Below, one piece after another: positions 32,398-64,000 of a stretch of 64,000 nucleotides of DNA. This stretch comes from a virus. How positions within the stretch are numbered: the first letter of the stretch is position 1; every line of letters begins with the position of its first letter. The position numbers were made by a program, and so were the translations under genes. The stretch is from the IMG/VR virus record IMGVR_UViG_3300036818_000127, positions 45,418-109,417 of that record; one strand, given 5' to 3'. The notes under the pieces were generated by a model that saw only the letters and a list, made by a program, of their open reading frames with translations, was not told where the DNA came from and did not search any database.

Positions 32398-32426
32398 TAA
32401 AAGAGAGATAAGAGAAAGGACTTCTG

Positions 32427-36396: not shown

Positions 36397-36655
36397 ATTG
36401 CAGTACCCTCAAGGCGGGTCGATGGATTGCAACTCGACAGGAATGCGCGGCCAGGTCTCTAGCATGATCAATTGCAGTACCCTCAAGGCGGGTCGATGGA
36501 TTGCAACTGGAATATCCTCTCCAGTAGATATCAACATACATCGGATTGCAGTACCCTCAAGGCGGGTCGATGGATTGCAACTTAGAAAGTCATTCGAGAG
36601 ACACTTCCCTGATTTTGTATTGCAGTACCCTCAAGGCGGGTCGATGGATTGCAAC
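36397..36655 (-). CRISPR. CRISPR mini-array: 4 identical 37-bp repeats, 3 spacers of 37 nt
   Basis: ATTGCAGTACCCTCAAGGCGGGTCGATGGATTGCAAC at 36397, 36471, 36545 and 36619. Minus orientation is inferred from the leader-like region with TTGACA on the right and the terminator on the left. Confidence 0.95.
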
Positions 36656-36826
36656 TGCCGCAGCATATAAATCTTGAAAGACCCTACCACTCAACTTTTA
36701 TCGCATGAGCCCTCTCTTGATCTTCTCAGCGCGGTGATTTCTTTTGTTTTGCTAAGGAAAAGCATACCAGATCTGTCAAGTTTCGCAAATTGGTTTTTGT
36801 TAAAATATGGCGTCGATTTGCGAGGA

Positions 36827-37264
36827 TCAATATCCCCTATGTTCCTTGTATTCTAGATACTGCCTCTTAACCTCATTGACTATGTTTTGTTTGACCTCAT
36901 CATCAGTTACATTTTTCTCTCTAATGATCTTTTCTGTCATTACTTTTACTTCTATTTGCCCCAAAGCATCAAGGTCACTAAACCCCCACTTTACAGCATA
37001 ATCGCTAAAAACCTGCTCCCGCTCCTGTTTTTCCTTTGCGAAGACATTTTCTGAAGGCATAGTAGCCTTTTTTGTCTGGATGATCTTATTGTATGTCATC
37101 ACCTCAATTTTATCAAGACGCTGTTCTACTCCCGTCAGACGGTCTTCCTGTTCTACAGCCTTGTACCCTTGAAGATAGCGATATTCTTCTTCGTGATCCA
37201 TAGTTTTCTCCTTTGTGTATACAAAAAACCCACAGAACCCTAGTATACTCCCACTGATCAACAT
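36827..37264 (-). CDS. hypothetical protein between the two CRISPR-like arrays
   Basis: ORF; likely start at MDHEEEY after the GGAG SD. Confidence 0.55.
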   Translation of the reverse strand: MLISGSILGFCGFFVYTKEKTMDHEEEYRYLQGYKAVEQEDRLTGVEQRLDKIEVMTYNKIIQTKKATMPSENVFAKEKQEREQVFSDYAVKWGFSDLDALGQIEVKVMTEKIIREKNVTDDEVKQNIVNEVKRQYLEYKEHRGY

Positions 37265-37304
37265 CGAAATTCTTGGCAGTGAGTTCTGAGGGTAGGGTAA
37301 AAAG

Positions 37305-37336
37305 AAAGAGGGATAGTGTAGATGCTATCCCTCTTT
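37305..37336. terminator. intrinsic terminator, paralogous to 36348-36385
   Basis: aaagagggatag-tgtagatg-ctatccctcttt. Confidence 0.75.
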
Positions 37337-37337
37337 A

Positions 37338-37600
37338 AATATACCCTCAGATGGATCGATGGAAATGAAAAGTATTAGTCACCTAATTCAGTTGCAGTAT
37401 CCTCAGATGGATCGAAAAGTAAATCTGAACTATCGACTAAAGTAGTTGCAGTACCCTACCAACGGGTCGAATTGGTTAAAGTAGAGAGTATACCCCTATA
37501 CAGTTGCAGTACCCTCTAACGGGTCTAAGTGCAGAAAGCGAGTATCAAACATATGAATACCGTTGCAGTATCCTAGCTCGGATCAACAGAGCTAGGATAC
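37338..37600 (-). CRISPR. degenerate CRISPR-like array: ~5 diverged repeats with short spacers
   Basis: GTTGCAGTA(C/T)CCT...GG(A/G)TC at 37391, 37445, 37503 and 37562, plus a remnant at ~37341. Period is 54-59 nt versus 74 nt in the canonical array. Confidence 0.75.
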
Positions 37601-39575
37601 CAGCACTCCCTCTATCTGTCAAGTCGGATTCTATAGTTCCTCTTCATAGGCAGTTCGCAATGGCTGCAATGACTCCTCATACTGAGAACGTAATTCCTGC
37701 TCAGCATCCTCTCGTGTCTTGAATGGCCCTTGGTCTTCTCCCTCGGAATAGAGGCCATCCTTAGTCCCTCGCTGGTAGCCGTACCATCCATCATCCTGCT
37801 GAAATGTCACCATCTCAATCCCGTCTTGCCCACCACCCCAGCTTAGCGGACCAGGGATACCTACAGGGGCTTTCTCACTCAGTTGAACAATTTCTAAGGT
37901 CTGCTTTCTCATCTCTTCATTTGCCATGATTCTTTTCGCTTTCTTTCTAAAACTAAAACTACCTAGCTACTATTCTACTCAGGAATCCCGCAGGGAATGC
38001 GGTTTTTTCTGTGACTTTTTGTTTCCCTCTTCGATGCGTACTCCATCCTCATCGAAGAGGTCCCAGGGATATGTATTTTCAGAGACACTAAGAGGTGTAG
38101 GTTTGAGCATCGATACGTTTCGCTCATGCCATGCTTTTGCCTTTGCGATATCCTCTTCTGTGGCAGGTGCTAAATCCTCGCTCTCGTATTCATAGGTACC
38201 GCCTGTGTGCAGCAAGGTTGCGAAGATCTTCTTATCCTGGATACGCTCTACTCTAGCGCAAACAGTACCACCAATAGCATCAACGATTTTAACAATTCGT
38301 CCGATTTGATAGGTTATTTCTGACATGTTACCTCCTATATCTTATGCAATCGATAATCTCAAACAGTATAAATACTCCTACTACAGCAAGAGCAGCTATC
38401 GTCCCTAATTGTCCCATTTGTGCTATCTCCTCTGCAAAACTGTCTAGGAATATTCCAAAAATATTCCTGGACCAATTCCCAAGCTCATCCAATATCCGTC
38501 AGCAGATCATCGAAGTAGCGGAAATGGGTACCGAGCCTTTGGAGTATTTCCTGATCACCTTCGACCTCTTGGTAGAGATCATACTCTGGACTGTCGAGCA
38601 TATCAAGCACTCGTTGTGGACAGGAAGTATGTAGTTGTTCAGTTTGCTTCTGGCAAAGCCTGTACCGACATCCAAGTTTTGGATGTTTCTCTACAACTCC
38701 AGCATCAATTAGCTCTTTGAGGGCATCATCATACTGTGTCCCTGGGATGCGACAGTCAAGCTGCCCTCTATCAACTCCAAGCTTATCGCAGATCGTCCAC
38801 CCTGCAATATAGGAGCCTTTCGGTGGCATCGTACTTGAGACGATAACCCCTAACATGTTCTGGGCAATAGGACTAAATTGTTCGCTCATTTCTGGAAAAC
38901 CCTTTCTTGTAGTGATAGAGCAGCAAAGAGACCCTCTGCCTCTTCAATAATTATCTGCTGGAATTCCGACGATTCCCCTGCTTCATCGCAGGTAGCGCGA
39001 AAATCAGTGCCTATATCAAAGAAGTGCATCGTTGCTGGCGATTGGCGCATCCAGATTGGATACCTAGAAAGATCTTCTTTAGGCACTTCTTTACCTAAAA
39101 GATCGATAAGATTATTGTCACTCATTCCTTTTCCTTTATACCTTCTACCTGCATTCAGCTTCCTTGCTCTGTGCAATAGATATAGCCTTTTGCACCTTTT
39201 TATTAAGGGTACGGTATCGGCTAACTTCCTTTTGCCATGTTTTAACGGGCCAAGCTTCTTTACTCCCCTTGGTTGATTGAATAGAGGGTATGAGGCCGCT
39301 ATGCATTTGAGCATATAAAGCTCGGATATGCTCAGGAGCATAACCAATACTGCCAAAATACTTATCATGGTCACCGATGATCTCGAATGCTTGCAATGCT
39401 AGGACTTCATATTCCTGTTCACATTTGCCAAATTCATCTATGGCATCTACAATCTCTTCATATGCATATCGTGTCAATCCTGCTGCAAGAAATCGAGCAT
39501 GAACATCTCTCTCAGGGACCTGTACGGCCATTTAGTTTCCTCTTTCTTTACTAGTAGCCTTCTTGATCTATCCTA

Positions 39576-39604
39576 GGTATAGCATATCTTCCATAAACTG
39601 TCAA
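39576..39604 (-). promoter_or_regulatory. conserved early promoter, copy 9 (-10 TATACC)
   Basis: consensus with one change, divergent from copy 10. Confidence 0.8.
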
Positions 39605-39712
39605 TACTTTTCACTATGAATATTCCCTCATTTCAAAATATCCCTAAAACTGCCTATAGCATACCAGGCAGGTCCAGTTTTGTGTAGCACTAAATATTCA
39701 CCCTCAAACCTA

Positions 39713-39741
39713 TTGACAGTTTATGGAAGATATGCTATACT
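39713..39741 (+). promoter_or_regulatory. conserved early promoter, copy 10
   Basis: exact consensus. Confidence 0.85.
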
Positions 39742-41901
39742 TAGGATAGATAAGAGAGTACTACTAGTAAAGAAAGAGGAAACCAAATGACACAGTTACT
39801 TACCGAGCAAGAAGTTGAAGTCATGAGTGAAGAGCTTAAAATTATCGCCCTTATCTTCACCGAAGACTATTGGGGAAAAGATCCAGAAAAAACAAAGTGG
39901 TATGAAAGCGATCCCGAATATAAGGGGTACATCGCCCAGCATGCTGAAATATATCGAACACTCCTACATGATGGCAATAGAAAGGAAGAGATTAGAAGGG
40001 AGAATAAAAGGAAAGAAAAGAGAGAAAGTAGAAAAGAGTATATAAAAGGTATTCATGCCCTAGGCTTGACAGTTGCAGAGGTTGAGCATCCATACAGTCA
40101 GGCAGCGAGGGATGCCTCTCTAAGGAGAGAAATCCGAAGCGAAGCATATGCAAACAGGTACTAAAATTAGTACCTAGAAAGGAGCAACAAAATGCCACAG
40201 AAACAGAAAAACCCTCTTATAGGTGAAAACATTCTTTTCATTAGCGCAGCACTTCACAAAGGATGCGTAAATGATAAGGAAGAGGGTATTGAGATTTGGA
40301 CAGCAGATGGAGAGTACCTTGTATGTGTAGATAATATTGTAACACATGTTGTGAGTGACCGTAGGGATGCATTGGCTTACTACGGTGAGTACTTCGGATA
40401 AGGAGGTAGATCTTGAGAAAGCTACAAGTAAGTACTGAGTACCAGTACAAGTCTAACGGGAAAGAGTACTACAAGGTTTACATGAGTAGGGCTGATGGAT
40501 CAATGGTAAAAGGCACTCGAACACTTGGTGCCTTTACTGGATCAAAATTGAAGCAAGTCCAGAAGGATATGCAAGATAACATCAACCGTGGCGCTTGGAG
40601 CAATAGGGAGTAAGGAGTTTTGTTCTTATCTATCCCTTATCTGCTATAATTCTATATAATTTCCATATCTCGAACTGATTCTGGGAATGCTTACACCGCA
40701 AGAACGGGCACAGTTCGAGAGTGAGTTACAAGTCAGCATCAATCACTGGCTTGCTAAGAAGGCGATGTAATATGCTGAATGACAGAGAAGAAGTTACGCC
40801 AGCAAAGGCATTAGATTATATCCTCCTTCTCATGGATCGAGTAAGGAAAGCACTTGACCTTCCTCAGCCTGAACGAATGATGGTCCTAGCAATCATGAAT
40901 GACTGGATGAAAGAGGCTGTTGCGATGCTTGAAGCAGCAGTAGAACAGGAGAATAGTGATAGAGATGATAGCGCAAAATCGTGAAGAAGGTGGAAGGCTT
41001 GTTCGGCTGGCTTGGATACGCTGGGCCAAGCAGCAGCCTGACCCCAAGTTTTCCTGGCTCGTTGAGTGGGATGATCCTCGATTTCCAGAGGCAGACAGGG
41101 AGGCTGATCGACAGATTTGGGATGCAATTGTTGCCCCATACAATGAATCAGTTGTAGCTCTCATAGCTGAGAATCAGCAGCTACGAAAGGACCTTGATAA
41201 AGCAATAGAAGCTCAGTATAGGCTAGAAAGATTGCTAGAGGAAAAGGATCAAGCATGAGAGATGAGATAATCCTTGCACTAGCAGGGTCTCTTGTGCTAG
41301 CAGCTCTCTCAATGCTAGCACTTTTCTCGCCAAAAGTGCAAAGCTACAAGTATATTAATCAGTGTTTAGTAGCAATGATAGTCTATATTATCATTGCTAC
41401 TTTTGTCATGGTTTATGCATGGTATACAGTAAAAGCCTAAAGAGTAGGGAGGATAAAAATGGATTGCTCTTGTGCCACTTGGTGTGGAAGTCCTTGTTAT
41501 TATCTGAAACTAGGAGACATAAAAGAACTGCCTGAACTTGCTGCGTCAATCCACATGCGCCACGTGATCCTGTGGACAAATGGCATGTGTATGGTATTTG
41601 ATGATAGGGGTGAGCAGATGCCGTATTACCAAGGCAGATTTGATAATAGGGCACAGCGCATCAATAATGTATTTCGTGGCGAGTGGGAGTATGGAGACTG
41701 GAATAGGGGTATCTTGAGTGGTGTGCCATTAGAGCTAAAGGCATAAGTCTATCTAGAGAAGAAACTGCTAATCTTGCAATGGAGATTAGCAGTTTCTTCG
41801 TTTTTGGCACACTTGTTCGTTGACTTGCTGATGAGGTAATGGTAGGTTGATGAGTAGATGCGTGCACGCATGCATGCATACTTTAATAGATGGAGGATTA
41901 A

Positions 41902-42726
41902 ATGCCTGTTAAAAAAAGAACAAGAGTATGGACGTTCCTAATCCGCAAAGGGGGTTCGGGCAAAACAACATCTGCTGTGAACTTTGCGACAATACTTGCA
42001 TGTATGCATAATCGCAAAGTCTGCTTAATCGACTTAGATCCACAGGGTAATTCCACTACCCACCTTGGGATTAACCCAGAGATACTTCCTACCTCAGTAA
42101 ATACCCTCTTTACAGAGATTGGAGTTGACCCCCATTCTGTCGTGCAGCCTGTTTTGTTTACCGTCAGCAACAAGGGCTATTCAATTGGTGTCATTCCTGC
42201 CAAGCGGGACCTAGATGAGACTGACCTCAGTATGAAGGCAACGCAGGTAGGGTTACTCAAGCCAATCATCGATGCACTCTCTGAAGATTGTGATGATATC
42301 GTGATTGATACGCGACCCACGCGGAGCATGCTGACTATTAGTGCTCTCATTCCAGCTACCCATGCCATCATCCCTATGGAAGCTGGCGTTTTTGCCCTAG
42401 ATGCGCTCAAGGACACTGAGCAGGATATCAATAATGTGAGGCAAGGGCTTAATCCAGGATTGAAGCTCGTAGGTATTCTACCGACGCGGGTACGTGAGAG
42501 CACAAATCTATCTAGGGTTATCTTAGGAGAGGCTGCGAAGGGATTTGATCATCTACTCATGCGCTACCAAGAGAAGGGAGAATCGCGGTTACTCCTGATC
42601 CATGATAGCGTTCGTCTCGGTGAAGCTCCAGCCTATGGACTTCCTGGAATAGCCTACGACCCCAAGAGTCCAGCTGTGCAGGATTACATCAAGTTCACGG
42701 AGGTACTCCATGCCCAAGAAACCTGA
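41902..42726 (+). CDS. parA: ParA/Soj partition ATPase
   Basis: deviant Walker A KGGSGKTT, LIDLDPQGN, IVIDTRP. Confidence 0.95.
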   Translation: MPVKKRTRVWTFLIRKGGSGKTTSAVNFATILACMHNRKVCLIDLDPQGNSTTHLGINPEILPTSVNTLFTEIGVDPHSVVQPVLFTVSNKGYSIGVIPAKRDLDETDLSMKATQVGLLKPIIDALSEDCDDIVIDTRPTRSMLTISALIPATHAIIPMEAGVFALDALKDTEQDINNVRQGLNPGLKLVGILPTRVRESTNLSRVILGEAAKGFDHLLMRYQEKGESRLLLIHDSVRLGEAPAYGLPGIAYDPKSPAVQDYIKFTEVLHAQET

Positions 42727-43315
42727 CCTCAGTAAGGCATTCGGCGAGCGATTTAAGACAGAGGAGAAAGTAGACGTGCAGGACCCTATAGCTGCTGCCA
42801 TGCAGGCAACAAAGGATGCAGAGAAGGATGCAATCCTTCTGGCTGGGTTGCCTGAAAACAAGGATGCACGCATGCATGCGTACACGTCAGATGTGATACC
42901 TGAAAGCATGAATGTATCCATAAATGAAGGCCCGCCAGCAGGGAGGCAGGCAAGAAGGAAAGTACCTACGCCAGCACGTGAGCAAGCAAGCAAGACTGAA
43001 AGCAAACCTACACGGAAGCCTGCTAACCAACAGGAAAGCAAGGATGAAAACGAGCAAGCAGACATAGATAAAGGAGTACTAGTAGACATGCTGTATGATC
43101 AGATCCAGCAGAAGAAACACTTATCTAATGGATCATTTCGCTATCGAGCAGATGAGCTGGAGAAGCTAGAGGCTATCTATCGGGACCTTGATAGGGCAAA
43201 GCCTGGTCGCATTAGCAAGAATGATATTGCGCGGCTGGCACTTATCGCCTTCTATGAGGACTATGAGCAGAATGGGGATGAGAGCATACTGGCACAGGTA
43301 TTTAAACGCATGTAA
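42710..43315 (+). CDS. ParA partner (ParG/ribbon-helix-helix-like centromere-binding protein)
   Basis: Overlaps parA; disordered N-terminus, C-terminal SFRY..ELEKL...ISKNDIARLAL. Confidence 0.6.
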   Translation: MPKKPDLSKAFGERFKTEEKVDVQDPIAAAMQATKDAEKDAILLAGLPENKDARMHAYTSDVIPESMNVSINEGPPAGRQARRKVPTPAREQASKTESKPTRKPANQQESKDENEQADIDKGVLVDMLYDQIQQKKHLSNGSFRYRADELEKLEAIYRDLDRAKPGRISKNDIARLALIAFYEDYEQNGDESILAQVFKRM

Positions 43316-44085
43316 GCATGCATGCATACTAGAAAGGGTACTAACCTACATGAATATCCTCCAATTTGGTATTGACCTGGGCCATACCATTGCCCACACT
43401 GATTGCCCAAATCCTAATGACCTCCGTGAGAAAGCACGGAAGATCATCGAAGCTCTTGGGCTCACCTTGAATGTTGATGAAGATCCTACATTCTTAATTG
43501 GGCTGGGCGTTGGACTTGCAGATCGACATAGGGAACCACTCGGTGAGGTTGCGCTAGATCTGATGGGAGAGTCTGGGCTACAAAATGGAGATGACTCTCT
43601 TTAGAAAGGAAGTATGTATGCCAGAACTTATTCGTACCAAGTGTAATACAGGCCAACTGGTTATCACTGACAAAGCCATTCGTCTTGAGACCAAATGGAT
43701 AGGACAGTCAACACGTATGCTAGCTCGTGAAAGGATTATTGGTGTCGATATTATGCCCTATCCGAAAGTGCTTGGACTTGGTGGAAAGAAGGCAGACTTG
43801 ACGTTCTACGGACAGGGAAATGAAACCATTAAAGTTCAGATTGTTGATATTAAAGTTGCGAGGCAGATCGTAGAATTGCTTGGGTACTGAGGTAGGGGAC
43901 AGACAGGCTTGCAGTAAGCCCTATCCTTGTTGTAGAGTATGAGGGATGCCTATCGTGAATAGTTTTTTGAAAGGAGAGAGTCATTATTTGATCTGAGGGG
44001 AAACAGAGTTTCGTTGATCAAGCCTGGAAGAAACCCATCTCTTCCAGGCTTCGCTTTTGTTATGGGTGCTGGGCTTGCCACTCTC

Positions 44086-44718
44086 TTAGAGCTTGTTTAC
44101 AGGGCTGTTGACCATGGCATCATACTTTACTCCATCAAGGATACCAAGTTCGCGCTGAGGATCATAACGACCAGCTCTTGCAATTCCATGATCATCCGTG
44201 TAAGAAATTAATATCCGTGTTCCTCTAGGCTCTACACCATTTATCTTATATGGTGGGTATGACCCACTGCTTATGTAGTCACCAGGAATTACCTGACTTG
44301 CTAGTTTCATGATCAAGCAAGCCTCTACTAGCCTCAAAGTCTCTTCTCTTTTCTGAGTGTCTTTGCCTATGGATACAACGTGAGAAGTAGGCGGTGCAAG
44401 CATGCTAACCGGATTGCAAGGAGTTAGTTGGATATTGAGTAGCTGACATCCTTGATCGAGATAATACTGCACCCAATACTTCTCACGTGTATATGCGGCA
44501 TTCTTGCCATCATACACAATCTCTATGATCTCAAAAAGAGGTTCTAGTTCTAAAGCGGCAAGTTCCCGCATCCACGCATCTTTGCCCTGGTTAGTCCCAT
44601 CTAAAATCTTGTGCCGATCAAACCTTGCATTAGGATTATTTGTCATCCCAACATACCTTGTGCACAGGACTATATCTGAGTTACGGGGGTCTTTCCATCG
44701 GTAGATGAAGTGTATCAT
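44086..44718 (-). CDS. GIY-YIG nuclease domain protein
   Basis: FIYRWKDPR...RYVGMTNNPNARFDRH...REKYWV...LLN. Confidence 0.8.
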   Translation of the reverse strand: MIHFIYRWKDPRNSDIVLCTRYVGMTNNPNARFDRHKILDGTNQGKDAWMRELAALELEPLFEIIEIVYDGKNAAYTREKYWVQYYLDQGCQLLNIQLTPCNPVSMLAPPTSHVVSIGKDTQKREETLRLVEACLIMKLASQVIPGDYISSGSYPPYKINGVEPRGTRILISYTDDHGIARAGRYDPQRELGILDGVKYDAMVNSPVNKL

Positions 44719-44741
44719 GTGTTTCTCCTGCTCTATGTCTG

Positions 44742-45554
44742 CTAGGCTTGCGCTTCTCGCAGAGCATCTTTATGATCCATTGCAAAATCTAATCCTGACA
44801 TCTTTACATCAATGATAAAGTTGATATTCCCGCCTCCAGGTTCGATTTCAGTAAATCCAATGTGGCGCATTAGTCCGATCCCGTCTTTTGTATCAGATCT
44901 TGCTGCTAGCATGTTAACAGGTATGCCTCTTTGCCCGAGATTGACAATGTGTCTAAACATTCCTCGAATAAGGATACTTCCCCATTTTCTTCTATTTGCT
45001 TTTGCTAACCCGATATCATTAGATGCCAAACCAAGCAACCATAAGTTAGCAGCCTTGCCTGTCTCAAAGGGAAGTACATCTTCAACATCAATCACTCCAA
45101 AGTTTTGACTTCTGTCCAGTTTAAGTAACCACCACATCTTCTCTTCTGTAATATTCAGGATGAAAATGCATCCTCTTACTTTTCCGCGACTATGTACGAC
45201 AAAACATGATTCTGGATTTCTCTCCAGCCAAGCATTTCTTTTTGCTGAAGTATCATCCCCTCCCCATATTTTTCTAAGCAAGGCAACAATTTCAGGCATA
45301 TCCTCTGGAGTTGCGGGGCGGAAAAGAGTAGGAAGGGCTTGATCTTCTGATTTCCGTTTCTCATCATTCCACTCTTTGATGAGCTTGTCGATATCATCTA
45401 TCTTGTAGAAACCTTGCTTCTCTCCAGGTTCTACAAGACGCTCAATTTTCCCCTCTTTAACAAGGCCGCGAAGCCTACTATCATTGATGTTTCCAAGTTT
45501 TCTTAGGGCTACGGCGGCTCTGCAATAGCCTTTGGGAGGTAGTCCTCTAGTCAT
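44742..45554 (-). CDS. HTH + GNAT-like regulator (repressor-like, divergent from XRE gene)
   Basis: N-terminal HTH, FRPATPEDMPEI GNAT start, GIGLMRHIGF C-terminal motif. Confidence 0.65.
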   Translation of the reverse strand: MTRGLPPKGYCRAAVALRKLGNINDSRLRGLVKEGKIERLVEPGEKQGFYKIDDIDKLIKEWNDEKRKSEDQALPTLFRPATPEDMPEIVALLRKIWGGDDTSAKRNAWLERNPESCFVVHSRGKVRGCIFILNITEEKMWWLLKLDRSQNFGVIDVEDVLPFETGKAANLWLLGLASNDIGLAKANRRKWGSILIRGMFRHIVNLGQRGIPVNMLAARSDTKDGIGLMRHIGFTEIEPGGGNINFIIDVKMSGLDFAMDHKDALREAQA

Positions 45555-45652
45555 TAGTGTGGCCGATCCTTTCTATGTATTAGCCCAATTGTACTTTAAA
45601 ATTTGCAAGAAAGCAATCAATGAAGACTTGAAAAAATGAAAGATTGAAACCC

Positions 45653-45681
45653 TTGACAAACCTGATCCTATAAAGTATAAT
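45653..45681 (+). promoter_or_regulatory. consensus sigma70 promoter
   Basis: TTGACA-17-TATAAT. Confidence 0.85.
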
Positions 45682-45740
45682 AATTTTGTAGTTAAGGATT
45701 TTAAATAAAAGTCTTGTTTGAAAGTAAGGAGGCGATTTGT

Positions 45741-45971
45741 ATGGCAGTTGTAATGAACAGCCAGTTGCTCCTGCTTAGGAAGCAGTTGAAAGTATCAAGA
45801 GAAAAATTAGCACGGAGGACTGAATCGGTATCTTCTGGAACAATCAGAAATGCTGAGGAAGGTAAAAGGATAGTGGTCTCGAATGCTAATCAGATACACC
45901 AAGCAATAAATGAGCTGCTTCAAGAAGCTGGCATGCAAAAAGTGGACACTTTAGGTTTATCTTTGTACTAA
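45741..45971 (+). CDS. XRE/Cro-like HTH protein
   Basis: LRKQLKVSREKLARRTESVSSGTIRNAEEG; AAGGAGG SD. Confidence 0.75.
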   Translation: MAVVMNSQLLLLRKQLKVSREKLARRTESVSSGTIRNAEEGKRIVVSNANQIHQAINELLQEAGMQKVDTLGLSLY

Positions 45972-46146
45972 TGTTCTTGTTAGCTAGTAGGCATAGTTCT
46001 ACTGAGTAGTGAATATTTACAACTGAATAGTGCAGCTCTCAGCAGTCCTACTAAGGTATATCCCTACAATGCTCGACCCAGTTAGCAGCGAGACACGACT
46101 TGTCCTGGTGAAAAGGTTCGGATTAAGAGAGAGAAGCACAAAACAT

Positions 46147-46243
46147 GGGGATGATTGGTTTGACAAGCATGAACAGGGCCAACCGTGTCACGGCGCTATC
46201 TAGAATTGCTTGACGGGGAGTTCAATTCTCTCCCATCTCCACC
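46147..46243 (+). ncRNA. reduced tmRNA-like RNA (tRNA-like domain only)
   Basis: 5' GGGGATGATTGGTTTGAC; acceptor stem GGGGATG/CATCTCC with G3.U; T-arm with TTCAATT loop; 3' ACC; helix-2 pair CAAGCA/TGCTTG. Confidence 0.75.
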
Positions 46244-48954: not shown

Positions 48955-48955
48955 G

Positions 48956-54549: not shown

Positions 54550-54584
54550 TTGACAGGTAGCAATGGTTATGCTATGCTACCTGT
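54550..54584 (+). promoter_or_regulatory. promoter with overlapping inverted-repeat operator
   Basis: TTGACA(54550)-17-TATGCT; perfect inverted repeat acaggtagca (54553-62) / tgctacctgt (54575-84). Confidence 0.7.
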
Positions 54585-54775
54585 ACAGCCCGTCTGGGAT
54601 TGAAAATCTCTGATCTCTACTACTCCGATAGGAGCCTATACATCCCGCTAGCGGGATTGAAACATTTCATCAATTGGTCAGAAATGACCAAGTTAAAACG
54701 GCGTGCCGTCTTGAAACACCTGCCAGTCTCCTTTTGACTGGCAGTCTTTTTGTACCCGATTAGAAGGATTGAAAC
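54583..54775 (+). CRISPR. degenerate CRISPR-repeat-like units ending (GGA)TTGAAAC with hairpin spacers
   Basis: Four units ending at ~54605, 54663, 54717 and 54775 (period 54-58 nt), e.g. ATCCCGCTAGCGGGATTGAAAC. Confidence 0.6.
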
Positions 54776-55339
54776 ATGTATTGCACAAAAATTGACATCT
54801 TTCGGTGTCCAAAGTATCCCCTCGTACTCGGTGCGATCTATGAAAAGATCGCTGAGCATCCCCGACTTCCAGATCTTCGCACGATTCAGAAGAGTGCGAA
54901 GGAAGATGTAACATGGCCGGATAGGTCATACAACCGTCTGGAGGTCTACTACCTTGATAATTTAGTAGAGGCCAATCGTCGTGAACTCTTCCAATTGCGA
55001 TTTAGCACAGCCCCTAATTCACGTGAGCTGACTTCACTCTTTCTTTCAATTGAAGAGAGTCAGGTAGTCAGTATTTCTATTCAGTTCCCTGGAAAGACGG
55101 GGCAAATGGCTGCTAGTCACGTGATTGGCGCAATCAAAAGCACCGTGCATGAGCTGAAGATTAGCCCAGATGATCTCTATCTAGAGGTCCAAGCTTTCCC
55201 TGAACAAGGGAGTGCGAGCTATATCAGTGAGCATAGGCTATCGGCTTTTGTCTGGATTAATGGACTTGATCGCTACCTCCATGTCCGCGAAGATCCGCAA
55301 GGTGTCCGCATGGTTCGGACAGGTAAGATCAAGCTCTAA
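54776..55339 (+). CDS. hypothetical protein directly after the repeat units
   Basis: 187-aa ORF; ATG abuts the last GAAAC. Confidence 0.5.
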   Translation: MYCTKIDIFRCPKYPLVLGAIYEKIAEHPRLPDLRTIQKSAKEDVTWPDRSYNRLEVYYLDNLVEANRRELFQLRFSTAPNSRELTSLFLSIEESQVVSISIQFPGKTGQMAASHVIGAIKSTVHELKISPDDLYLEVQAFPEQGSASYISEHRLSAFVWINGLDRYLHVREDPQGVRMVRTGKIKL

Positions 55340-55638
55340 CTTTAAAAGGAGTAGTCAATGCCAGATGAGATAACGGCAACCATTCAATGTGAGAACTGTC
55401 ATCGTCTTGCAATGAATGAAACTGCTATATCAGATGGATCTAAAATCAAGATCCGCTCAGATCAGTGCAGCCATTGCTACATTACTGGCTCTCTTGTTGT
55501 GAAAATATCTGTGTCACAACAAGAGAGCCACTTGGAGCATGAGAATGATTTGTCTCCAGAAGAGATTGCGGAGGAATGTGCAATCATTCACCCTAACCTG
55601 ACACATGAAGAGTATGAGATTTCCAGAAAGGGAACAAC

Positions 55639-56190
55639 ATGACAATAGGAATTGACATTTCAGTATATGAATTATTTCTCACTGATTTGGATGGAACTTT
55701 AGTGCTGCCAGTCCGTGGAAAGACCTTCCCTGAAACAGTAGGTGATCGCCGGATTATGTCAGACAGGCATTCAGTACTTGATGAGCTGCATGCACAAGGT
55801 AAAAAGGTCTGCATCATCACCAACCAGGGTGGCCGTGCCTGGGATATCTTCAGCAATACTGAGTTTGAAGCATGGATGGATCAGTTCTGTGCCCGCTATA
55901 ACATTGATGGGTATCAGGTCTGCTATCATGATACGGGTAAGGCGTCTCAGTTATATCCTGAGAAAATTGTCCTAGGTCTCGGCGGTCCTGATCTTACTCC
56001 TGACGGATTTGAACGGCGCAAGCCTGGACCTGGAATGTTGATCCAGGCAATGCAACATTTCGGGGTTTCAAAGGAACGAACATTAATGATCGGTGACAGG
56101 CATGAGGATGAGGGCGCTGCTGCTGCTGCGGGCGTACTCTATGTTCCTGCTTGGAAGTTTTTCGGAGACCCCGAGCCAAGTCCTTTCTAG
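55639..56190 (+). CDS. HAD-IIIA phosphatase (GmhB/PNKP-like)
   Basis: DLDGTL, ITNQGG, RRKPGPGML, MIGDRHED. Confidence 0.9.
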   Translation: MTIGIDISVYELFLTDLDGTLVLPVRGKTFPETVGDRRIMSDRHSVLDELHAQGKKVCIITNQGGRAWDIFSNTEFEAWMDQFCARYNIDGYQVCYHDTGKASQLYPEKIVLGLGGPDLTPDGFERRKPGPGMLIQAMQHFGVSKERTLMIGDRHEDEGAAAAAGVLYVPAWKFFGDPEPSPF

Positions 56191-56242
56191 GGAGGAAACT
56201 AAAGCCCTTTAGAGATTAGATAAAAACTGGTCTCTAAAGGGC

Positions 56243-56271
56243 TTGACAGTTTATGGAAGATATGCTATACT
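56243..56271 (+). promoter_or_regulatory. conserved early promoter, copy 11
   Basis: exact consensus. Confidence 0.85.
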
Positions 56272-56306
56272 TAGGATAGATAAGAAACACACGGAGGAAT
56301 CGAGAA

Positions 56307-58588
56307 ATGAAACAAGTCACTTTCTGGGACATCACCGACTTAGACCGCAACGAGGTCTACTACCATGCGGTACATGGCAACGTGTTCGGAATGCTTCAGA
56401 ACCAAGCTGAAGACGGTGAGATTATTCTCTGGGGTCGCAATGAGGATGAGGATAAAGAGTGGAGAGAGCGAGGAAAGGGCGAAGTTTCATGCAGTTCCTT
56501 CGATACAATGCAGGTGTCAATCGACAATTTCTTCGATGAGAATGGGATGATTTTCATCCTGGCAGGTGAGAACCCACGCCAGTACAAAGAGTATGAATAT
56601 CTCATCACCACTCCAGAGTGGAAGATTGTCGGGGGACTTCGCCCAACTGAAGACCCAGAAGTGTTTCAGTTGTACACAATAGAAGAAATGGTGGGATTGT
56701 AGTATGCCTGGATCGTTACGCCTACCTCCTGAGCTAGAGGCAGAATGCGCCATGCTCTATCCAGGACTCACACATGAGGAATATGGGGCATCGAAGAAAG
56801 GACTAAAAAACGTGGAAAACATCACTATCACAGCGGACGTTGTAAAAATCATGAGAGGCCATCATCAGGACCTCGTTCAGGATGGTAATACTATCTCGTT
56901 CAAGGTAAAGGATAAAGCCCAATTTGGCCCAATCAGAGCTTGGTACTACCTCTTACCTGATAATACAATTGTAGAGCATATTGACCCACCCAAAGCACTG
57001 CCTGGGCTAATATCGACAATCCAGAGCTTTCTAGGGATGTTCTGGAAAGAGCTTCAGCAAATAGAAGCAAAGAGAGTATCCAAGTAGCCGAGGGCAATCT
57101 CAGAAAGGACGATATGAAACATTGGATAGCGACAGACCCAAAGGATGAGGAATGTTTGAAGTTCCTCTTGCAGCATCCTCTCCTCAACAACGAGGACTGC
57201 TACGATTTTGAGCAGGAATCGGAGAAGGGCAACATTACCCTCTACTTCGCGACCAAACAGCCTCTTGATGAGGAAGATCAGCATAATCTCGGTAGCCCGA
57301 AAGGCGTACTTAATTTCAGTTTCAACGAAGAGTAGCCACCAGACGGGTGGCAGGACCAACAGTAGTCAGCACGCCTGATGTTCAGGCAGTGCTCTAGCAC
57401 AAGAAAGGGAACAGAAAATGGCATGTAAAGAAATCGGGTGTAATACCCAGTGGACATTTGCAGACGGGCTATGTGAGGTCTGCTACTTCCGTAAGCAAAA
57501 CAGCAGCAGTACTACAAAGAAGCCCAGAAGCGGGCATACGATGCAGACGCTTGAAAGCGTCTATCATGGCAACTCGGATGTACGCAAGGTGCGTCTTGAG
57601 AAGTAGTAGTCCCCCAAATTGAAGAGGACTCGAGCCATACACGCACGAGTCCTCCAGCTTCACGGCTCAATGTGTGGGCTGTAGTGAGTTGATATAGCAC
57701 AAAATCGTGAGGGCCACGGTCCTCTAGTCGAGAAAGAAGGTATCACATGAGACAGGAAAGAATTAGAAAAGAGCATCCAGCCAGTGAGACTGCAAAGCAT
57801 GAAGGCGTCCCCTGCAGCCATGAAGAGCTGTATAATTATGCTCAGCAAGAGATAGCGCAGCATAGCGCACAAGCCGCTGAGAGCGCCCGTCGTCTCCAAG
57901 AGTGGGATGATGAGCAGCATCGAATTGCACGGGAGTCAAAATGAGCTGGAACATTAGTCGTGCGAAGGCTTTTCTTCCCACTCTGTTAGGTATTCATGAT
58001 CAGCATCCCGATTTCTTCGATGCTGATCTCACCTACAACAATGTGAGGTCTCGTCTGCAAGCAGCGGGATGGGACTTCATCACAAAGCCCCTATTCTGGG
58101 ATTCGGGAGTGGAAAAAGACCAATATAAGTATCTCGTAAATGAACAGCCCCATGCAGACATCCTCGTGATGAATTTGCACGGCTACCACGATCTAGAAGG
58201 CGTAGATGCATGGCTAAGAGGTAGAGGAAAGTAGCCCACCGCACAAACACTCAACCGGCTTCCACCACGGAGCCGGTTGAGTGTTGTGTGGGCTGTGGTG
58301 AGTTGATATAGTTAGGGCATAAGCCCTAGAAAGAGAAAGTAAATGAAGCATTCAACAAGTTTAAATTTCTTCGATGGCACAGCAGATCGAGCTGCTGAAA
58401 TTATCCGTAAGGATTTCCCAGGTGTCGAGGTGAGCACAGACAAGCATGGTAATCTCGATATCGAGCATAATTTCTACATCGGGCGTCATCTCAACGATAA
58501 ATATAATCCCTGTCCAAGTATCGGCAGTCGGCCTGTGCATCCTGCTTTTGAAAATTGTAGTGTGACGTTCCACGACGAAGAGAATTAG
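56307..58588 (+). other. operon of small hypothetical ORFs separated by palindromic spacers
   Basis: co-oriented ORFs with SD sites, terminator at ~58607-58642. Confidence 0.65.
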
Positions 58589-58667
58589 CCCACACAACAA
58601 TAATCAAGCCTGCTTCCACAACGGAAAGCAGGCTCTTTTTTTATACCCACAAATGGCTCAATACTTC

Positions 58668-58958
58668 CTACTTTTTCATCTTTACATACAACCTCATCCA
58701 ATATCTTCTACTCTGTTCAATTAGCTCATCTTTCCTTGACTCAACATCTTCGAGCTGCTTTGGGTGGATCTTCCAACGTCCACCACGCCCTCTACTATTG
58801 AGCTTCCTTTCCCTGTCTGCCTGTAACCATCCCTTTCTACACCAAGTACATGCAGTCGCCAGTGATACGTGATATATCTCGCTTACTTGTCTTGTTGTGT
58901 AGTAGTCATGTTCTACACGTAAATTACTAAGAGTCTGCTGATGATACTCTGTTGCCAT
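58668..58958 (-). CDS. HTH_17/MerR-like DNA-binding protein
   Basis: YYTTRQVSEIYHVSLATACTWCRKGWLQA...GGRWKI. Confidence 0.8.
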   Translation of the reverse strand: MATEYHQQTLSNLRVEHDYYTTRQVSEIYHVSLATACTWCRKGWLQADRERKLNSRGRGGRWKIHPKQLEDVESRKDELIEQSRRYWMRLYVKMKK

Positions 58959-59227
58959 AGTGCGGTCCTCCTTCTAAAATAGCTTTACATCTATAAGACG
59001 ATAGAAAGATACAAAAATAACACAGACCATATGTTCTAATAGTATTGCCATCTATGTTATACAAGAAGTTCCTTTGCAGACTACTTGACATGAGAGATAT
59101 AATGCTATCTATGCATCTATTTAGAGGTATGAAATAGGAGCTGGCTAGGCCAATACCTAACTCATACTATGATACTCATTCCTTGTCTCTTACTTGTTTA
59201 CCTCGCTTTGCTGTTATGCGGTTCTGT

Positions 59228-59270
59228 AAAAAGAGGCTTACTCATTGGGGGAGTAAGCCTCTTTTTTTTA
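59228..59270. terminator. bidirectional terminator after the cas12-like/wHTH operon
   Basis: aaaagaggcttactc-loop-gagtaagcctctttttt. Confidence 0.8.
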
Positions 59271-59594
59271 CGCATTGTATCTCTCTCTACTTGGGAGAAG
59301 CACATATCCATAATCTTGCACGCAATATACATAAAAGCCGGTCCATATGATTTTGCGTCGAATACGGTTGATATGCTTTTCCATCATTACCCTCGCATTC
59401 CTGTCAGCATCGCGGTTATAGACAATGCGTGCAAGATCATCATAAGTAACCGGAGTGCCATTCCTCAGGGGATAGATCAATCGGTACTCAGTCGGCGTGA
59501 AAGGTATGCCTCTACCCTCTGAGACAAGCGCATACCTTTGACTGCTCCACGGTACTCCCTTGGCCCCAGCGAGCTTCTTAAACTCTATTTGCAT
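59268..59594 (-). CDS. stand-alone OmpR/PhoB-type winged-helix (Trans_reg_C) protein
   Basis: FTPTEYRLIYPL..GTPVTYDDLARIVY...MEKHINRIRRKI...VQDYGY; starts 12 nt after the Cas12-like stop. Confidence 0.8.
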   Translation of the reverse strand: MQIEFKKLAGAKGVPWSSQRYALVSEGRGIPFTPTEYRLIYPLRNGTPVTYDDLARIVYNRDADRNARVMMEKHINRIRRKIIWTGFYVYCVQDYGYVLLPSRERYNA

Positions 59595-59606
59595 CTTCTT
59601 CTTTAC

Positions 59607-61298
59607 TCATGCTTTAAATCCTCGTGCAAACTCTTCCCATGTTGTCCGCTCTGCTTCTGGTATCTCCTTTTGCTTCTGCTTCGATCTGAGCTGTAAGAAG
59701 GGAAGCTTGCGCACAATATTGATACCACTCTGCTGTCCTACATCTGTTGTGTACCCACATTCAATGCAATGAAAGAGGTTCTTATCTTCTTTGTCGAAGT
59801 TCTCTTTGCTCACACAGCCACATTGCGAACAAGTGGAAGCCGTGTAAGCACTGCTGACTTTACGGAGTGGTGTTAGACCAGCAATGTCTAGTTTGGTCGC
59901 TAGGAGGTCCTGGAGCTTCTGATATTGCCTTCTCTGGAGTATACGGTTGAAGGCTTTCCCCTTCCCTCCAACACGCTTTTTCGGGGCAATGTAGCTTAGA
60001 TCTTCTACGATCACCTGGGACTGATGTGTACGGGCCATCTCGACAATACTATTAGCTACTTGGTGGACATGGCGGTCTGCAATCCGTGCGCGTCTCCTAT
60101 CCCCTTTCGTTGTTTTTCCCTTTTTCTGCTTGATAGCTATATTCTTTTCAATCGCACCAATTAATCCGTTTAATTCATCGGTACTAACATTGAAAGTTTC
60201 AATGACTTCCTTCCCGTCCAGGGAAACGACAGCCCCAGATGCTAAATAAGAAATAGATCGGTCAATACCTAGGTAGGTCGCTGGCTTTATTCGCTCAGGT
60301 CTGGGGAACTGGAAGGCGACATGGAGCTGGTACTTATCTCCATATTTCATCAGTTTAGCAGACACAGGCCAAGCAGGCTTTACACTAGTATCGCCTGACC
60401 TCTGCGGAAGGAAGGCATGTTTAGTAAAACGTAGCATGTTCTCATGCCACCTTCCCATTTCTAGAGGGACAAGAATGGAGCGAGTCCCATTTCCAAAGGA
60501 CCTGACCTCCTGATACCTGCCCATTCCAAGATGGTAATCCCCCAAGATAGTGTGAGTACTTGTACTGTACCGCTTCAGTCCTGTTTTATGTTCCTGGAAA
60601 CCTTTGTTCCGCATGTAAATATTCTCAGGTTCACGGATATCGATGTATTGTCCATCTATATCGATCCTTCTTCCATGATTGGACAATTCTCCGATAACAT
60701 ACAGTCTCACATAGAATGTGCGCGTCTCTGGATTGTAGAAAATACGGAATCCCTGATCAGGCATGCTATTCCCGAAAGATAAGGGCACCAGCCCTCGCTG
60801 TCGTGTGCGGAGCAGTTGGTCGCGGAGTGTATTCTCTTCTTCTAGGTCATCTGAGATAGTCCGCAGACCTTCTAGTGCGGCCTCTCGCTTTGCATCACGG
60901 TTATCTTCTTCAACCCTGTTAGGGTAGGATGGCTTCTGCTTTTCTGTCAATGACAGTTCAGCGAAACTCAAGAGGGTGCTAGCAATATCTGACTTCATCG
61001 ATGCACGCAGCCGGGCCTCTAGAGGTTCAAGTAACTGGTCCAGATCTGGTATCTTGTTCGTTCGGAAAAGAGCAGTTTCTAATGTCCTAGCATTCGTTAG
61101 CTCTTCTCCATTGCTCTCGCGTACTGCAAATACAGCCATTGCATGCAATTCCTCTGCTGTATAGCTAGAGAAGAAATCAAGGATTGATGTGTAGGCTCTT
61201 GTGTAATTCTGCAATGCCTCATCAAGCACTGCTCTGATGTGTTTCGTGGGGTTGTGGATGGTGAACACTGCTGTTCGGTGAATGTGTTTTCCTGGCAT
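59607..61298 (-). CDS. Cas12/TnpB-family RNA-guided protein (563 aa, Cas12f-like size), RuvC-III apparently degenerate
   Basis: RuvC-I YLGIDRSI, bridge helix, RuvC-II VIVEDL, AYTASTCSQCG..FHCIECGY zinc finger, RuvC-III TDVGQQSGINI. Confidence 0.9.
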   Translation of the reverse strand: MPGKHIHRTAVFTIHNPTKHIRAVLDEALQNYTRAYTSILDFFSSYTAEELHAMAVFAVRESNGEELTNARTLETALFRTNKIPDLDQLLEPLEARLRASMKSDIASTLLSFAELSLTEKQKPSYPNRVEEDNRDAKREAALEGLRTISDDLEEENTLRDQLLRTRQRGLVPLSFGNSMPDQGFRIFYNPETRTFYVRLYVIGELSNHGRRIDIDGQYIDIREPENIYMRNKGFQEHKTGLKRYSTSTHTILGDYHLGMGRYQEVRSFGNGTRSILVPLEMGRWHENMLRFTKHAFLPQRSGDTSVKPAWPVSAKLMKYGDKYQLHVAFQFPRPERIKPATYLGIDRSISYLASGAVVSLDGKEVIETFNVSTDELNGLIGAIEKNIAIKQKKGKTTKGDRRRARIADRHVHQVANSIVEMARTHQSQVIVEDLSYIAPKKRVGGKGKAFNRILQRRQYQKLQDLLATKLDIAGLTPLRKVSSAYTASTCSQCGCVSKENFDKEDKNLFHCIECGYTTDVGQQSGINIVRKLPFLQLRSKQKQKEIPEAERTTWEEFARGFKA

Positions 61299-61386
61299 GG
61301 CATGCCCTCCTTCAATCTGGTTAGCATCTATAATACCCTATCTTTTACGTCGGAACATGAAAAATTGTTCATAATTGGATTAGGTA

Positions 61387-61415
61387 TTGACAACTTGATT
61401 AGCGGCTATTATACT
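61387..61415 (+). promoter_or_regulatory. sigma70 promoter for the ncRNA/array, divergent from the cas12-like gene
   Basis: TTGACA(61387-92)-17 nt-TATACT(61410-15). Confidence 0.85.
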
Positions 61416-61421
61416 CTGCTC

Positions 61422-61925
61422 TGTAATCTTCGGATTGCTTGGGCTCGTGAGCTACGGCTCGGTAGTTGCAGGCCCAATCCCTGGGAGAGTGCCGTATGAC
61501 TTCTGATTCCCTGTTGAGGGATAAGAAGCGAGTCATGGTCATATAGGGTACATTCGTGTGCCTTGTGACTATGCCTTCTCTGATTCCCGATATCGGGAAA
61601 AGGAAGCTTGACACCTTCTGGAGAGAACAACGCCACAAAACCGGAAACGGTACTCGCTTCGCGGTGGCTCCCTTTGGGCCAACTCTCATGTGCAGCACGA
61701 TGAATGAGCAGGGGATGTTGCAACTCTGCTAATCTACTGATGCTTTGATGGGATACACTGCTACAGCCTGGCAGTGGGACGGCTCACTCTCATGTTGCAT
61801 TAGAACTTGTTGAGACGCTCCTTTACAACTGAAGGAATGAAGCCTTTCAGTATTTGTTGCATTATGCTGAAATGCGGTTCTACCTGCTCATAGCTAGTTG
61901 TTGCATAGTTGATGAGCAGGTAGGT
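61422..61925 (+). ncRNA. structured tracr/scout-like RNA leader
   Basis: Dense hairpins with UUCG and GAAA tetraloops (gtaatc-ttcg-gattgc, agggtaca-ttcg-tgtgcctt, accg-gaaa-cggt); four hairpins with UGUUGCA loops; no credible ORF. Confidence 0.75.
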
Positions 61926-61939
61926 GTCTATAAGAGAGT

Positions 61940-64000
61940 CTGTGCAGCTATGTAAGAGGATATATAGCGCAGCATTGCTTGTAACCAATAAGGATAGATG
62001 ACAACATAGAGTATAGGCTGTCGACTGCAACCCGTTACTTGATATGTCAGAGTGTAACTTAGATGGATCTATGCAACCACGGGCTTTTATTTGCAATTGC
62101 AGCAAGCAATATGGCAAGATGCAACAAATGGACAATTTATATGATCCTGCAACCATCAGACAGGGCTACAGCCTGCTCGCTAACCATGCAACCTTGGGAG
62201 AGTTCTGATCGCAATACTGAAGTAGTAGGTGATAATTGCAAGAGGCTGACTGGAAGAGGGAGGGCGCAGCTAGTGCAACCTCAAGCAGTATCAGGGATGC
62301 AACTGATGTGATTGGAGAGGAATGCAGCAACTAGGCACTCCCATCGAGATGCAATACTGGCGATCTATCCATGTAACCATCTTCGTCGGTCCTGCATGCA
62401 ACGTTCTTGACCCTTACTGCAACAAGCAGTTCGCAATCGCAACTTGTATGGTTTAGGCTAGTATTATCCATGTAACTATTGAACGCTGTCCGGCAATGAT
62501 GAGCAACGGTGAAAGGCAAAGTCTAGTGTGCTGCAACTATCTTATAGTCTAGACTAAATGCAATGAATATCAAGGTAAGCCTCGCAACCATTTCAATGCA
62601 ACTAAGAGAAGTATAGGTAGTATAGTGCAACTCACAAATGACGGCAACATCAAGAAGTCACAGTATGCAACCAAGCTACGCGGGACCTTGCAACAACGGG
62701 CAATAGCTATATGCAACAAGAATGTCATATTGGACAGTGCAACAACGAGTAGAAGATTTGCATGCAGCACAAATGAAATACTACATAGCAACATATGGAC
62801 CAGCGATCAAGGGAACTGCAACAAGAGGGCGTTGTCTGGAGGATGTAACACAAGGAGCTAGATAGCGATTGCAACTTTCATAGAGTCACGCAACTGTAGT
62901 AGATGCAATGGTACAAGCTCGTTCACAACTAACATGACACTGCAACAAGCAAGAGACACTGCAACAAAAAGGATATAGGGACAATTGCAATAATCTACGA
63001 TGGCCCCATGCAACCTGATAGAGGAAGATATTCAATAATTGTAACTGAAACCTCCGCAACTATAGAATATGCATTCTAGACTAAGAATTATGCAACTAGT
63101 TGGTTGCTAAGGCATAATGCAGCTATCAGCGGCTAGATATGCAACTTACTTTCAACACACTCTTGCAACATCCATCTCGACATCTCAATTCTATCAATGC
63201 AGCGACTTTGATGTTCCTTACATGCAATGAGTAGAGAAAATGCAACAGCAAAAGAGTGAAGAACGCAACTATCATTGACCAGCTATGCAACTATGGTTCT
63301 CATATCATAATAGTTTATACGCAACTTCTGTAGAGGCATCATGCAACATGTATTGAAAGCATTGCAACCTCATCTGACAGCATCCTGATGCAACATGATT
63401 TCTCTTTGTACATGCATCTCGCAACAACTGGCAATGACATCTACAACGGTAGAGGAATGGGGCATAGCATGCAACTCAGGCAAGTTATCACTGCAACATG
63501 GGGAAGTCTTGCGATATCAATGCAACCAGTGTTCACATACGTGGAAGGAATGCAACATGTTCAATAATATGCAGCCTCAATGGATTTTATGCAACTATTA
63601 GGTAAATAGAGAGCTATGCAACTGATTAACCCTATTCACTCAATATGCAACAAATAGGTGGTACTGCAACACTGATGAGGGTTTTGCATCATCATACCCA
63701 AGATGCAACTATGGCTTTTTGAGGCAACTACGAACATGTCAAATATATGTAACGATCAAGAGAGAACCTAGTGCAACCATGGGCGGGCATGCAATGAGTA
63801 GACATAGCAACAACTGAGTGCAACATTCTTGATCGAGAGAAATGCAACATAAGGGTTATCATAGCAATAGCCAAGCATGAATGATGCAACCATGACAGAG
63901 CAAGCAACACACATGTGGTACATTGCAGCATTGGAAAGCAACTAGAGGGGAAATAAGCAGCAGGTAAACGGAATAATAGATGCAACAATATCTGTAGGAC
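61940..64000 (+). repeat. mini-repeat guide-like array: (A)TGCAAC every ~20-30 nt with unique spacers; runs off the window end
   Basis: About 43 exact TGCAAC plus ~40 single-variant copies by eye, all on the + strand, period not a multiple of 3, no long ORF. Confidence 0.85.

Follow-up and report, generated by a model that had tools for sequence, protein, structure and literature searches.

Whether the guide-RNA arrays of a single phage descend from one repeat or from several is a question raised by the virus record IMGVR_UViG_3300036818_000127. The stretch analysed (hereafter the window) comprises 64,000 nucleotides (nt), bases 45,418-109,417 of the 109,417-bp record, i.e. its last 64 kb; the scripts covered the entire 109-kb phage genome, including the parts outside the window. 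The record has 127-nt direct terminal repeats and is rated complete. Three arrays occur in it: a clustered regularly interspaced short palindromic repeat (CRISPR) array with full-length repeats at 36.4 kb, a compact array of shortened repeats at 37.4 kb, and a field of short TGCAAC units that begins at position 62026, next to a gene for a Cas12f-like protein and a scaffold RNA. Apart from the arrays, the span 36397-64000 consists of ordinary phage genes.

The original prediction regarded these arrays as successive stages in the erosion of one repeat down to its 3' handle, and suggested that the same Cas12-like effector might use all three. The arrays are present where it had placed them and the series of unit periods (74 nt, 54-59 nt and a median of 23.5 nt) was borne out; the evidence supports neither the pedigree that it proposed nor a single effector. 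The arrays probably do not form one decaying lineage but belong to two families, and on balance the phage appears to carry two separate guide-RNA systems, each with a full and a compact form, that have only the last six repeat bases in common.

The TGCAAC field and its scaffold RNA

From 62026 to the end of the window (62026-64000) TGCAAC occurs on the plus strand only, each unit joining (A)TGCAAC to a unique stretch of about 13-24 nt; in the whole window, both strands counted, 86 copies of the hexamer are found against 33 expected and a maximum of 48 in 100 shuffles. The array runs on across the contig junction and stops near contig position 800, comprising 103 units in 2.7 kb (52 exact hexamers and 51 one-letter variants) with a median period of 23.5 nt (interquartile range 20-27). 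This period corresponds to a unit made of a hexamer complementary to a trans-activating CRISPR RNA (tracrRNA)-like scaffold and a guide of about 17-18 nt. Only handles of 6-7 nt are present at this locus, with no regular full-length direct repeats, and the array was not reported by Tandem Repeats Finder. The longer remnants quoted in the original prediction are correct, GGTACTGCAAC lying at 63660-63670 and ACTGCAAC preceding 8 of the 52 exact units. The 127-nt terminal repeat (window 63874-64000, contig 1-127) is located inside the field, and the array spans the assembled genome ends.

Between the Cas12f-like gene and the field, a promoter-like site read from the sequence (61387-61415, plus strand; TTGACA, 17 nt, TATACT) is divergent from the gene and faces the array, and its -10 box is kept in related loci. 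It is followed by a tracr-like scaffold RNA (61422-61680, plus strand), supported by alignments and the consensus fold of five sequences. This region of about 260 nt is conserved in five metagenomic relatives and at a second site in the same genome, referred to here as locus 2 (homologous copy at contig 32,914-33,103); the tracr motif was not found in IMG/VR. Between co-varying stems lies an invariant motif, GTAGTTGCA (61462-61470), with the sole exception of GTAGTTACA in locus 2. In all five relatives, whose proteins are 66-70% identical, the gene, the divergent scaffold RNA and a TGCAAC array stand in the same order. The stretch between scaffold RNA and array (61700-61910, plus strand) contains four plus-strand GTTGCA motifs, three of them as TGTTGCAT, the exact complement of ATGCAACA; GTTGCA motifs occur at the equivalent place in two of the relatives (L006 and L008) and could be extra anti-repeats or reversed units.

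The strongest single result for the TGCAAC field is the spectrum of its hexamer variants, for which all 18 one-letter substitutions were counted over 8.6 kb in five arrays. The four substitutions compatible with G.U wobble pairing are the four commonest (TGCAGC 34, TGCAAT 26, TGCGAC 20 and TGTAAC 18), changes of the first base rank next (12, 11 and 5 occurrences), and each of the 11 substitutions disrupting an internal pair is seen 0-5 times (26 in total). Such a strand-specific wobble spectrum supports pairing of the RNA with GUUGCA as well as the plus strand as the sense strand. Pairing beyond the six bases was not above chance when three scaffold regions were compared with seven repeats by RNAduplex (z -2.2 to +1.7). 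The field probably serves the phage-encoded Cas12f-like protein as its guide array, the hexamer pairing with GUUGCA of the adjacent tracr-like RNA and the following 18 nt or so acting as guide.

The protein itself has 563 amino acids (59607-61298, minus strand) and carries a Cas12f1-like TNB domain (PF07282, 35 bits against a cut-off of 26.3, E 1.6e-8). Matches to CasX, TnpB and Cas12f sequences in the PDB over residues 334-553 are weak and consistent, those to Cas12f structures being confined to the C-terminal part with E values of 1e-4 to 5e-3. Relatives of the protein were not confirmed in IMG/VR or in the species-genome collection. Its RuvC catalytic triad (D, E, D) is incomplete: aligned with catalytically dead CasX chains, the protein has D346 (RuvC-I) and E432 (RuvC-II) at the first two catalytic positions and G521 at the third. 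In the family alignment the RuvC-III consensus HAD is replaced by G or Y at this position in the four closest members, and more distant homologues retain the aspartate. Because glycine takes the place of the RuvC-III aspartate, the protein probably binds DNA without cutting it.

As regards the guide content of the field, comparison with four candidate host genomes gave only matches with E above 1. The unit sequence at window 62243-62273 matches the phage's own genome at 5607-5630 in 23 of 24 bases, within a minus-strand gene for a helicase-like protein of 1332 amino acids. The guide would be complementary to the mRNA, and CTTCCA is located 5' of the match; the sole further self match among 121 spacers, of 16 nt with one mismatch, is at chance level. 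Only three spacers are common to the arrays of this phage and that of L006, an example being the unit after window 63704, from which it follows that guide content turns over despite the absence of an adaptation gene.

Type I-like arrays at 36.4 and 37.4 kb

The array at 36397-36655 (minus strand) consists of four identical 37-nt repeats (36397-36433, 36471-36507, 36545-36581 and 36619-36655) and three 37-nt spacers, with a period of exactly 74. On the minus strand, every repeat ends GGGTACTGCAAT and forms a 4-bp hairpin (ACCC/GGGT) followed by an 8-nt handle, ACTGCAAT, whose terminal bases are TGCAAT. A hairpin of 4 bp with an 8-nt tail is the architecture of Cas6-cut repeats in type I and III systems. 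A scan of about 185,000 species genomes for this hairpin and tail, with the loop left free, found arrays in one genome only, a Chloroflexia metagenome-assembled genome (MAG) with more than 200 repeats at periods of 72-75; one of its arrays lies directly 3' of genes for a Cas3 helicase-HD, a Cas7 (DevR family) and a Cas6, a type I system without subtype assignment. When the 8-nt repeat ends were kept fixed and the interior of the 36.4-kb repeat was shuffled, the real interior scored 17 against the MAG repeat versus a null of 4.0 +/- 1.4 (z of about 9), in the minus orientation only, and the two repeats share identical blocks of 13 and 6 nt. Compared in both orientations, the same interior matched no full-length repeat from the Cas12f-like loci (|z| <=2.4).

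A reading of the 36.4-kb array as a plus-strand Cas12f-type array was considered and rejected, on account of the type I-like interior and of a terminator lying upstream on the plus strand. This terminator-like hairpin (36346-36385), flanked by an A-run and a T-run and terminator-like in both directions, was read from the sequence and not flagged by the consensus scan; it stands directly 3' of the array on the minus strand and of the last plus-strand gene. It is near-identical to the hairpin that closes the 37.4-kb array (core GAGGGATAG ... CTATCCCTC), an arrangement that would result if array cassette and terminator had been duplicated together.

The compact array (37338-37586, minus strand) has five shortened repeats separated by spacers of 34, 32, 29 and 31 nt. 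Four repeats end at 37562, 37503, 37445 and 37391, with periods of 59, 58 and 54, and finish G(G/A)TACTGCAAC, in TGCAAC; the fifth, a partial copy at about 37338-37359, lacks the handle. These repeats correspond to the 3' 25-27 nt of the Chloroflexia MAG repeat, the second unit being its 3' 26 nt minus one base, and they retain only the hairpin and ACTGCAAC. Across all seven aligned sequences the stem remains paired, and two units show a compensatory change from C-G to U-A, which in so small a sample, with one compensatory pair, is modest evidence of covariation. By alignment and pair counts (100% paired), the pseudo-repeats keep the Cas6 hairpin and 5' handle that characterise Cracr and Racr elements. 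A promoter-like site precedes the array (37594-37622, minus strand; TTGACA, 17 nt, TG-TATCCT, 10 of 12 consensus positions with an extended -10 TG), and an intrinsic terminator-like hairpin of 12 pairs with a T-run, found by the consensus scan, closes it (37305-37336, minus strand). The minus-strand orientation assigned to both arrays in the original prediction stands, since the genes flanking on that side lie on the minus strand, a hairpin with a T-run follows each array and the promoter (37622-37594) precedes the compact one.

Neither a Cas1 nor a Cas6 family match was found in the complete phage genome, in which other class 1 genes were not searched for individually; for this reason both arrays are read as relying on host type I proteins, and the conserved Cas6-type hairpin also argues that they serve such proteins. 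Most likely they borrow the host's type I machinery, the 36.4-kb array being read as a virus-borne mini-array and the 37.4-kb array as its compacted companion. Their minus-strand transcripts would be copies of the host type I repeat that Cas6 cuts, the compact array retaining just what Cas6 and Cascade require, namely the hairpin and the 8-nt 5' handle, and the RNAs would be processed and loaded by host proteins. They may serve to attack rival elements, or else to keep the host CRISPR machinery busy or divert it. The 211 spacers of the MAG arrays match the phage only at chance level, over <=15 nt.

A possible, less probable view of the 37.4-kb array is that it acts as an RNA anti-CRISPR, either a Racr-like sponge for Cas6 or Cascade or a Cracr-like element that redirects Cascade so as to silence host cas or toxin genes. 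Its repeats are shortened and mutually divergent while hairpin and handle are kept, its spacers measure 29-34 nt versus 37 nt in the neighbouring standard array, and it is multiplexed and equipped with a promoter and a terminator of its own; viral Cracr arrays with such traits (bioRxiv 10.1101/2024.10.29.618823) and Racrs (PMC10651486) have been described. On the other hand, comparison of its spacers with 20.7 kb around the cas operon of the related MAG, which may not be the host, yielded no match: the best ungapped alignments cover 17-19 of 29-34 nt, with no 10-nt seed matches. The known virus-borne mini-arrays, Racrs and Cracrs (PMC10651486; bioRxiv 10.1101/2024.10.29.618823; reviewed in PMC11656645) resemble the present arrays in mimicking class 1 repeats, and here too no matching cas genes were found in the phage, Cas1 and Cas6 having been searched. 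Cracr arrays in particular share with the 37.4-kb array divergent pseudo-repeats and shorter spacers. The published ones have two or three spacers and are directed against types I-B, I-C, I-E and I-F, whereas the 37.4-kb array has four and resembles a Chloroflexota type I system without subtype assignment; unlike in the published cases, no target was found for any spacer of the phage.

Origin of the handle-only units

The erosion of full repeats to handles proposed in the original prediction can indeed be seen, in locus 2 and in L006; the part of the claim that fails is the choice of the 36.4-kb repeat as parent, whose interior is type I-like (z of about 9). Locus 2 (contig 31,400-33,110, L003 2400-4110), outside the window, consists of a second scaffold RNA gene and an array, with no effector gene beside them. 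Along the direction of transcription it contains six repeats of 36-38 nt, then a unit with 12 retained bases and then about 39 handle-only units; the six repeats differ from one another save for a conserved 3' part ending (A/G)ATGATTGCAAC. The anti-repeat of locus 2 is GTTACA, not GTTGCA, and its units are still mostly TGCAAC (27 exact, 5 TGTAAC).

L006 shows the same order, with seven 37-nt repeats right 3' of the scaffold RNA followed by a decayed repeat and handle-only units. In L008, three identical 37-nt repeats of another sequence stand within the array; they end ACGATGCAAC and lie about 840-1010 from the gene start (reverse complement of 1-4438), in the middle of the handle-only array, and one 35-nt spacer contains TGCAAC. 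The unit period declines with distance from the scaffold gene in L006 (rho -0.44) and L008 (rho -0.34; p < 0.001 for both), and no such gradient was detected along the window's own TGCAAC array (rho -0.11). More distant relatives have a regular 37-nt array (L012), a regular 32-nt array (L009) or a decayed array with only a common 3' end (L010). L009 (3398-3552) and L010 (2446-3184), at 34% protein identity, belong to another repeat family ending GGGATGAGG, regular with 32-nt repeats at a period of 61-62 in L009 and decayed with variable spacing in L010, which looks like a parallel case of repeats that retain only their 3' end.

The parents of the TGCAAC field are thus rather likely to be the 36-38-nt repeats beside the tracr gene, as in locus 2 and related phages, and not the 36.4-kb repeat. 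These parents would give way to handle-only units along the direction of transcription, the shrinkage having taken place within the Cas12f-like system. Loss of all but the spacer-proximal end is a recurring trend in the Cas12f-like family, in keeping with the absence of adaptation genes.

The sequence logo of the bases upstream of the mini-repeats, in which enrichment of the canonical repeat end had been expected, does not bear out descent from that repeat. For 79 exact hexamers from two arrays of this phage, A predominates at -1 (58% and 64%), where the canonical repeat has C, with a weaker A at -2 and no other clear signal. The eight upstream bases resemble the type I repeat end slightly more than random positions do (z 2.6 and 2.3), owing to 12 units with AC and two with GTAC, and have no significant similarity to the ends of other candidate parents. 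Had the units shared an origin with the 36.4-kb repeat, a far stronger enrichment would be expected; the weak one observed may leave room for a few captured units.

Several observations weigh against assigning the arrays to two families. Within the TGCAAC arrays, ACTGCAAC is found in 12 of the 79 mini-units and GTACTGCAAC in 2 of 79, above the expectation from base composition (z 2.3-2.6), and a minor share of type I-like units may therefore be present there. The plus-strand end of the 36.4-kb repeat (GATGGATTGCAAC) is similar to the conserved repeat end of locus 2 (GATGATTGCAAC). The closest host repeat, counted from the aligned repeats, is just about 70% identical over 37 nt, and no identical one was found, at <=3 mismatches, in 401 sampled Chloroflexota genomes; the exact host was not found either. 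No protospacer was recovered for any of the seven long spacers in INPHARED, IMG/VR, the related loci, the phage's own genome or the MAG cas region, the IMG/VR search of the three 36.4-kb-array spacers having used their 24-nt seed ends. Finally, the occurrence of an identical hexamer in both systems is left without explanation.

An explanation can be offered if this identity is no coincidence and lets the host type I and Cas12f-like systems share RNA or machinery, either by host Cas1-Cas2 adding units that erode or by capture of ACUGCAAC RNAs, from the compact or host arrays, through the scaffold GUUGCA; taken together, this proposal and its routes are unlikely. Slightly less likely again is the fuller scenario in which the hexamer is functional, host type I adaptation adds full units or Cas6-cut ACUGCAAC RNAs pass to the Cas12f-like complex, and older units erode. 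It would account for full units at the Cas12f-like loci that are sized like those of host type I systems (36-38-nt repeats, 33-40-nt spacers) and are tracr-proximal in locus 2 and L006, for a phage without Cas1, and for the few spacers in common with a relative at 67% protein identity, which indicate that arrays turn over; sharing across classes has a precedent, proposed for type V-K arrays and type I-D (bioRxiv 10.1101/2021.02.06.429022). Against it, the repeat interiors at the Cas12f-like loci differ from the host-type repeat and among themselves, the three identical full repeats of L008 are not proximal, and Un1Cas12f1, from an unrelated source, already ends ATGCAAC, so the hexamer may be ancestral to the family.

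Descent of all three arrays from one ancestral repeat, with the Cas12f-like protein taking guides from all of them, is comparably improbable. Use of all three arrays by this protein is chemically compatible, since in the transcribed sense they all end TGCAAC or TGCAAT: the TGCAAT of the 36.4-kb array, a tolerated wobble variant, and the TGCAAC of the 37.4-kb array can both pair with the tracr GUUGCA, and nothing more seems to be needed, given that even the full repeats of the Cas12f-like locus itself show no pairing beyond the hexamer. AC and GTAC are also mildly overrepresented in front of the mini-array hexamer, which points in the same direction. The interior of the 36.4-kb repeat, however, has its homologue in a type I repeat, not in those of the Cas12f-like loci, and the hairpin has been kept, down to a compensatory change, even though the Cas12f-like system can do without one, as is evident from the mini-arrays. 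Moreover, the spacers of the first two arrays are as long as those of type I systems (29-37 nt versus about 18 nt in the mini-array), both arrays lie 24 kb from the tracr gene with promoter and terminator signals of their own, and the mini-units have A, not C, at -1.

That the TGCAAC field is instead an RNA sponge of handle mimics titrating host type I handle-binding proteins is highly improbable: its unit consensus ATGCAAC agrees with the host-type handle ACTGCAAC at 7 of 8 bases, but the variant spectrum tracks wobble pairing with GUUGCA, the array always adjoins the Cas12f-like gene and scaffold RNA in the relatives, and the unit length suits a Cas12f guide.

Relation to known systems

The two-system arrangement can be compared with several described systems. 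Type V-F Cas12f1 (Un1Cas12f1/Cas14a1) has, like the phage system, a miniature effector with RuvC and zinc-ribbon parts and a separate scaffold RNA in which a short internal motif pairs with the spacer-proximal repeat end, and the two systems agree in the sequence of this end. In published Un1Cas12f1 scaffolds GGAATGCAAC immediately precedes the 20-nt guide, and in one engineered version the repeat is cut down to those 10 bases (bioRxiv 10.1101/2022.10.20.513037). A Cas12f is thus known to work with a handle of such sequence and length, the comparison being with the 10-nt motif quoted in that paper. In the phage, unlike in type V-F, the handle is naturally short and present in about 100 tandem copies, the protein lacks the RuvC-III aspartate (G521), and no Cas1 was found in the complete genome, Cas2 and Cas4 not having been searched for; sequence similarity of the phage protein to solved Cas12f structures is weak.

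Dead Cas12f homologues beside CRISPR arrays (Hoffmann et al., Nature 2026, PMC13472631) are similar in combining a damaged RuvC with guide arrays and predicted DNA binding. Those proteins lose part of the RuvC region by C-terminal truncation, whereas in the phage protein a single catalytic residue is replaced; the passages of that paper drawn on here make no mention of handle-only arrays of about 100 units or of phage carriage.

Type V-K Cas12k transposons (bioRxiv 10.1101/2021.02.06.429022) likewise employ a non-cutting, tracrRNA-dependent type V effector, and their truncated units, with a 17-bp spacer, resemble the phage units in joining the tracr-pairing part of the repeat to a short guide; V-K arrays also have features in common with the host type I system (same source). 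In V-K there is usually a single special unit beside a normal array, whereas in the phage nearly the whole array has this form, with 6-7 nt retained and a phage as carrier. The likeness is one of design and not of descent, the effector being Cas12f-like and not Cas12k.

The arrays illustrate what degree of compaction a natural CRISPR-type array can reach in the absence of adaptation machinery to hold its repeats uniform, and the bases that survive correspond to what each effector needs: the hairpin and 8-nt handle for Cas6 and Cascade (class 1), six bases for the tracr-dependent Cas12f-like protein (class 2). The handle-only layout accommodates about 100 guides in 2.7 kb and is a natural counterpart of the engineered short Cas12f scaffolds. 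The presence in one phage of host-mimicking arrays, of a binder of its own that probably does not cut and of a common hexamer raises the question of cross-talk between host and phage guide RNAs. For annotation, it is relevant that repeat finders, such as Tandem Repeats Finder in this case, overlook handle-only arrays. Elsewhere in the window, at 2143-2504, four plus-strand TGCAAC copies occur in 360 nt within a minus-strand coding sequence, probably by chance.

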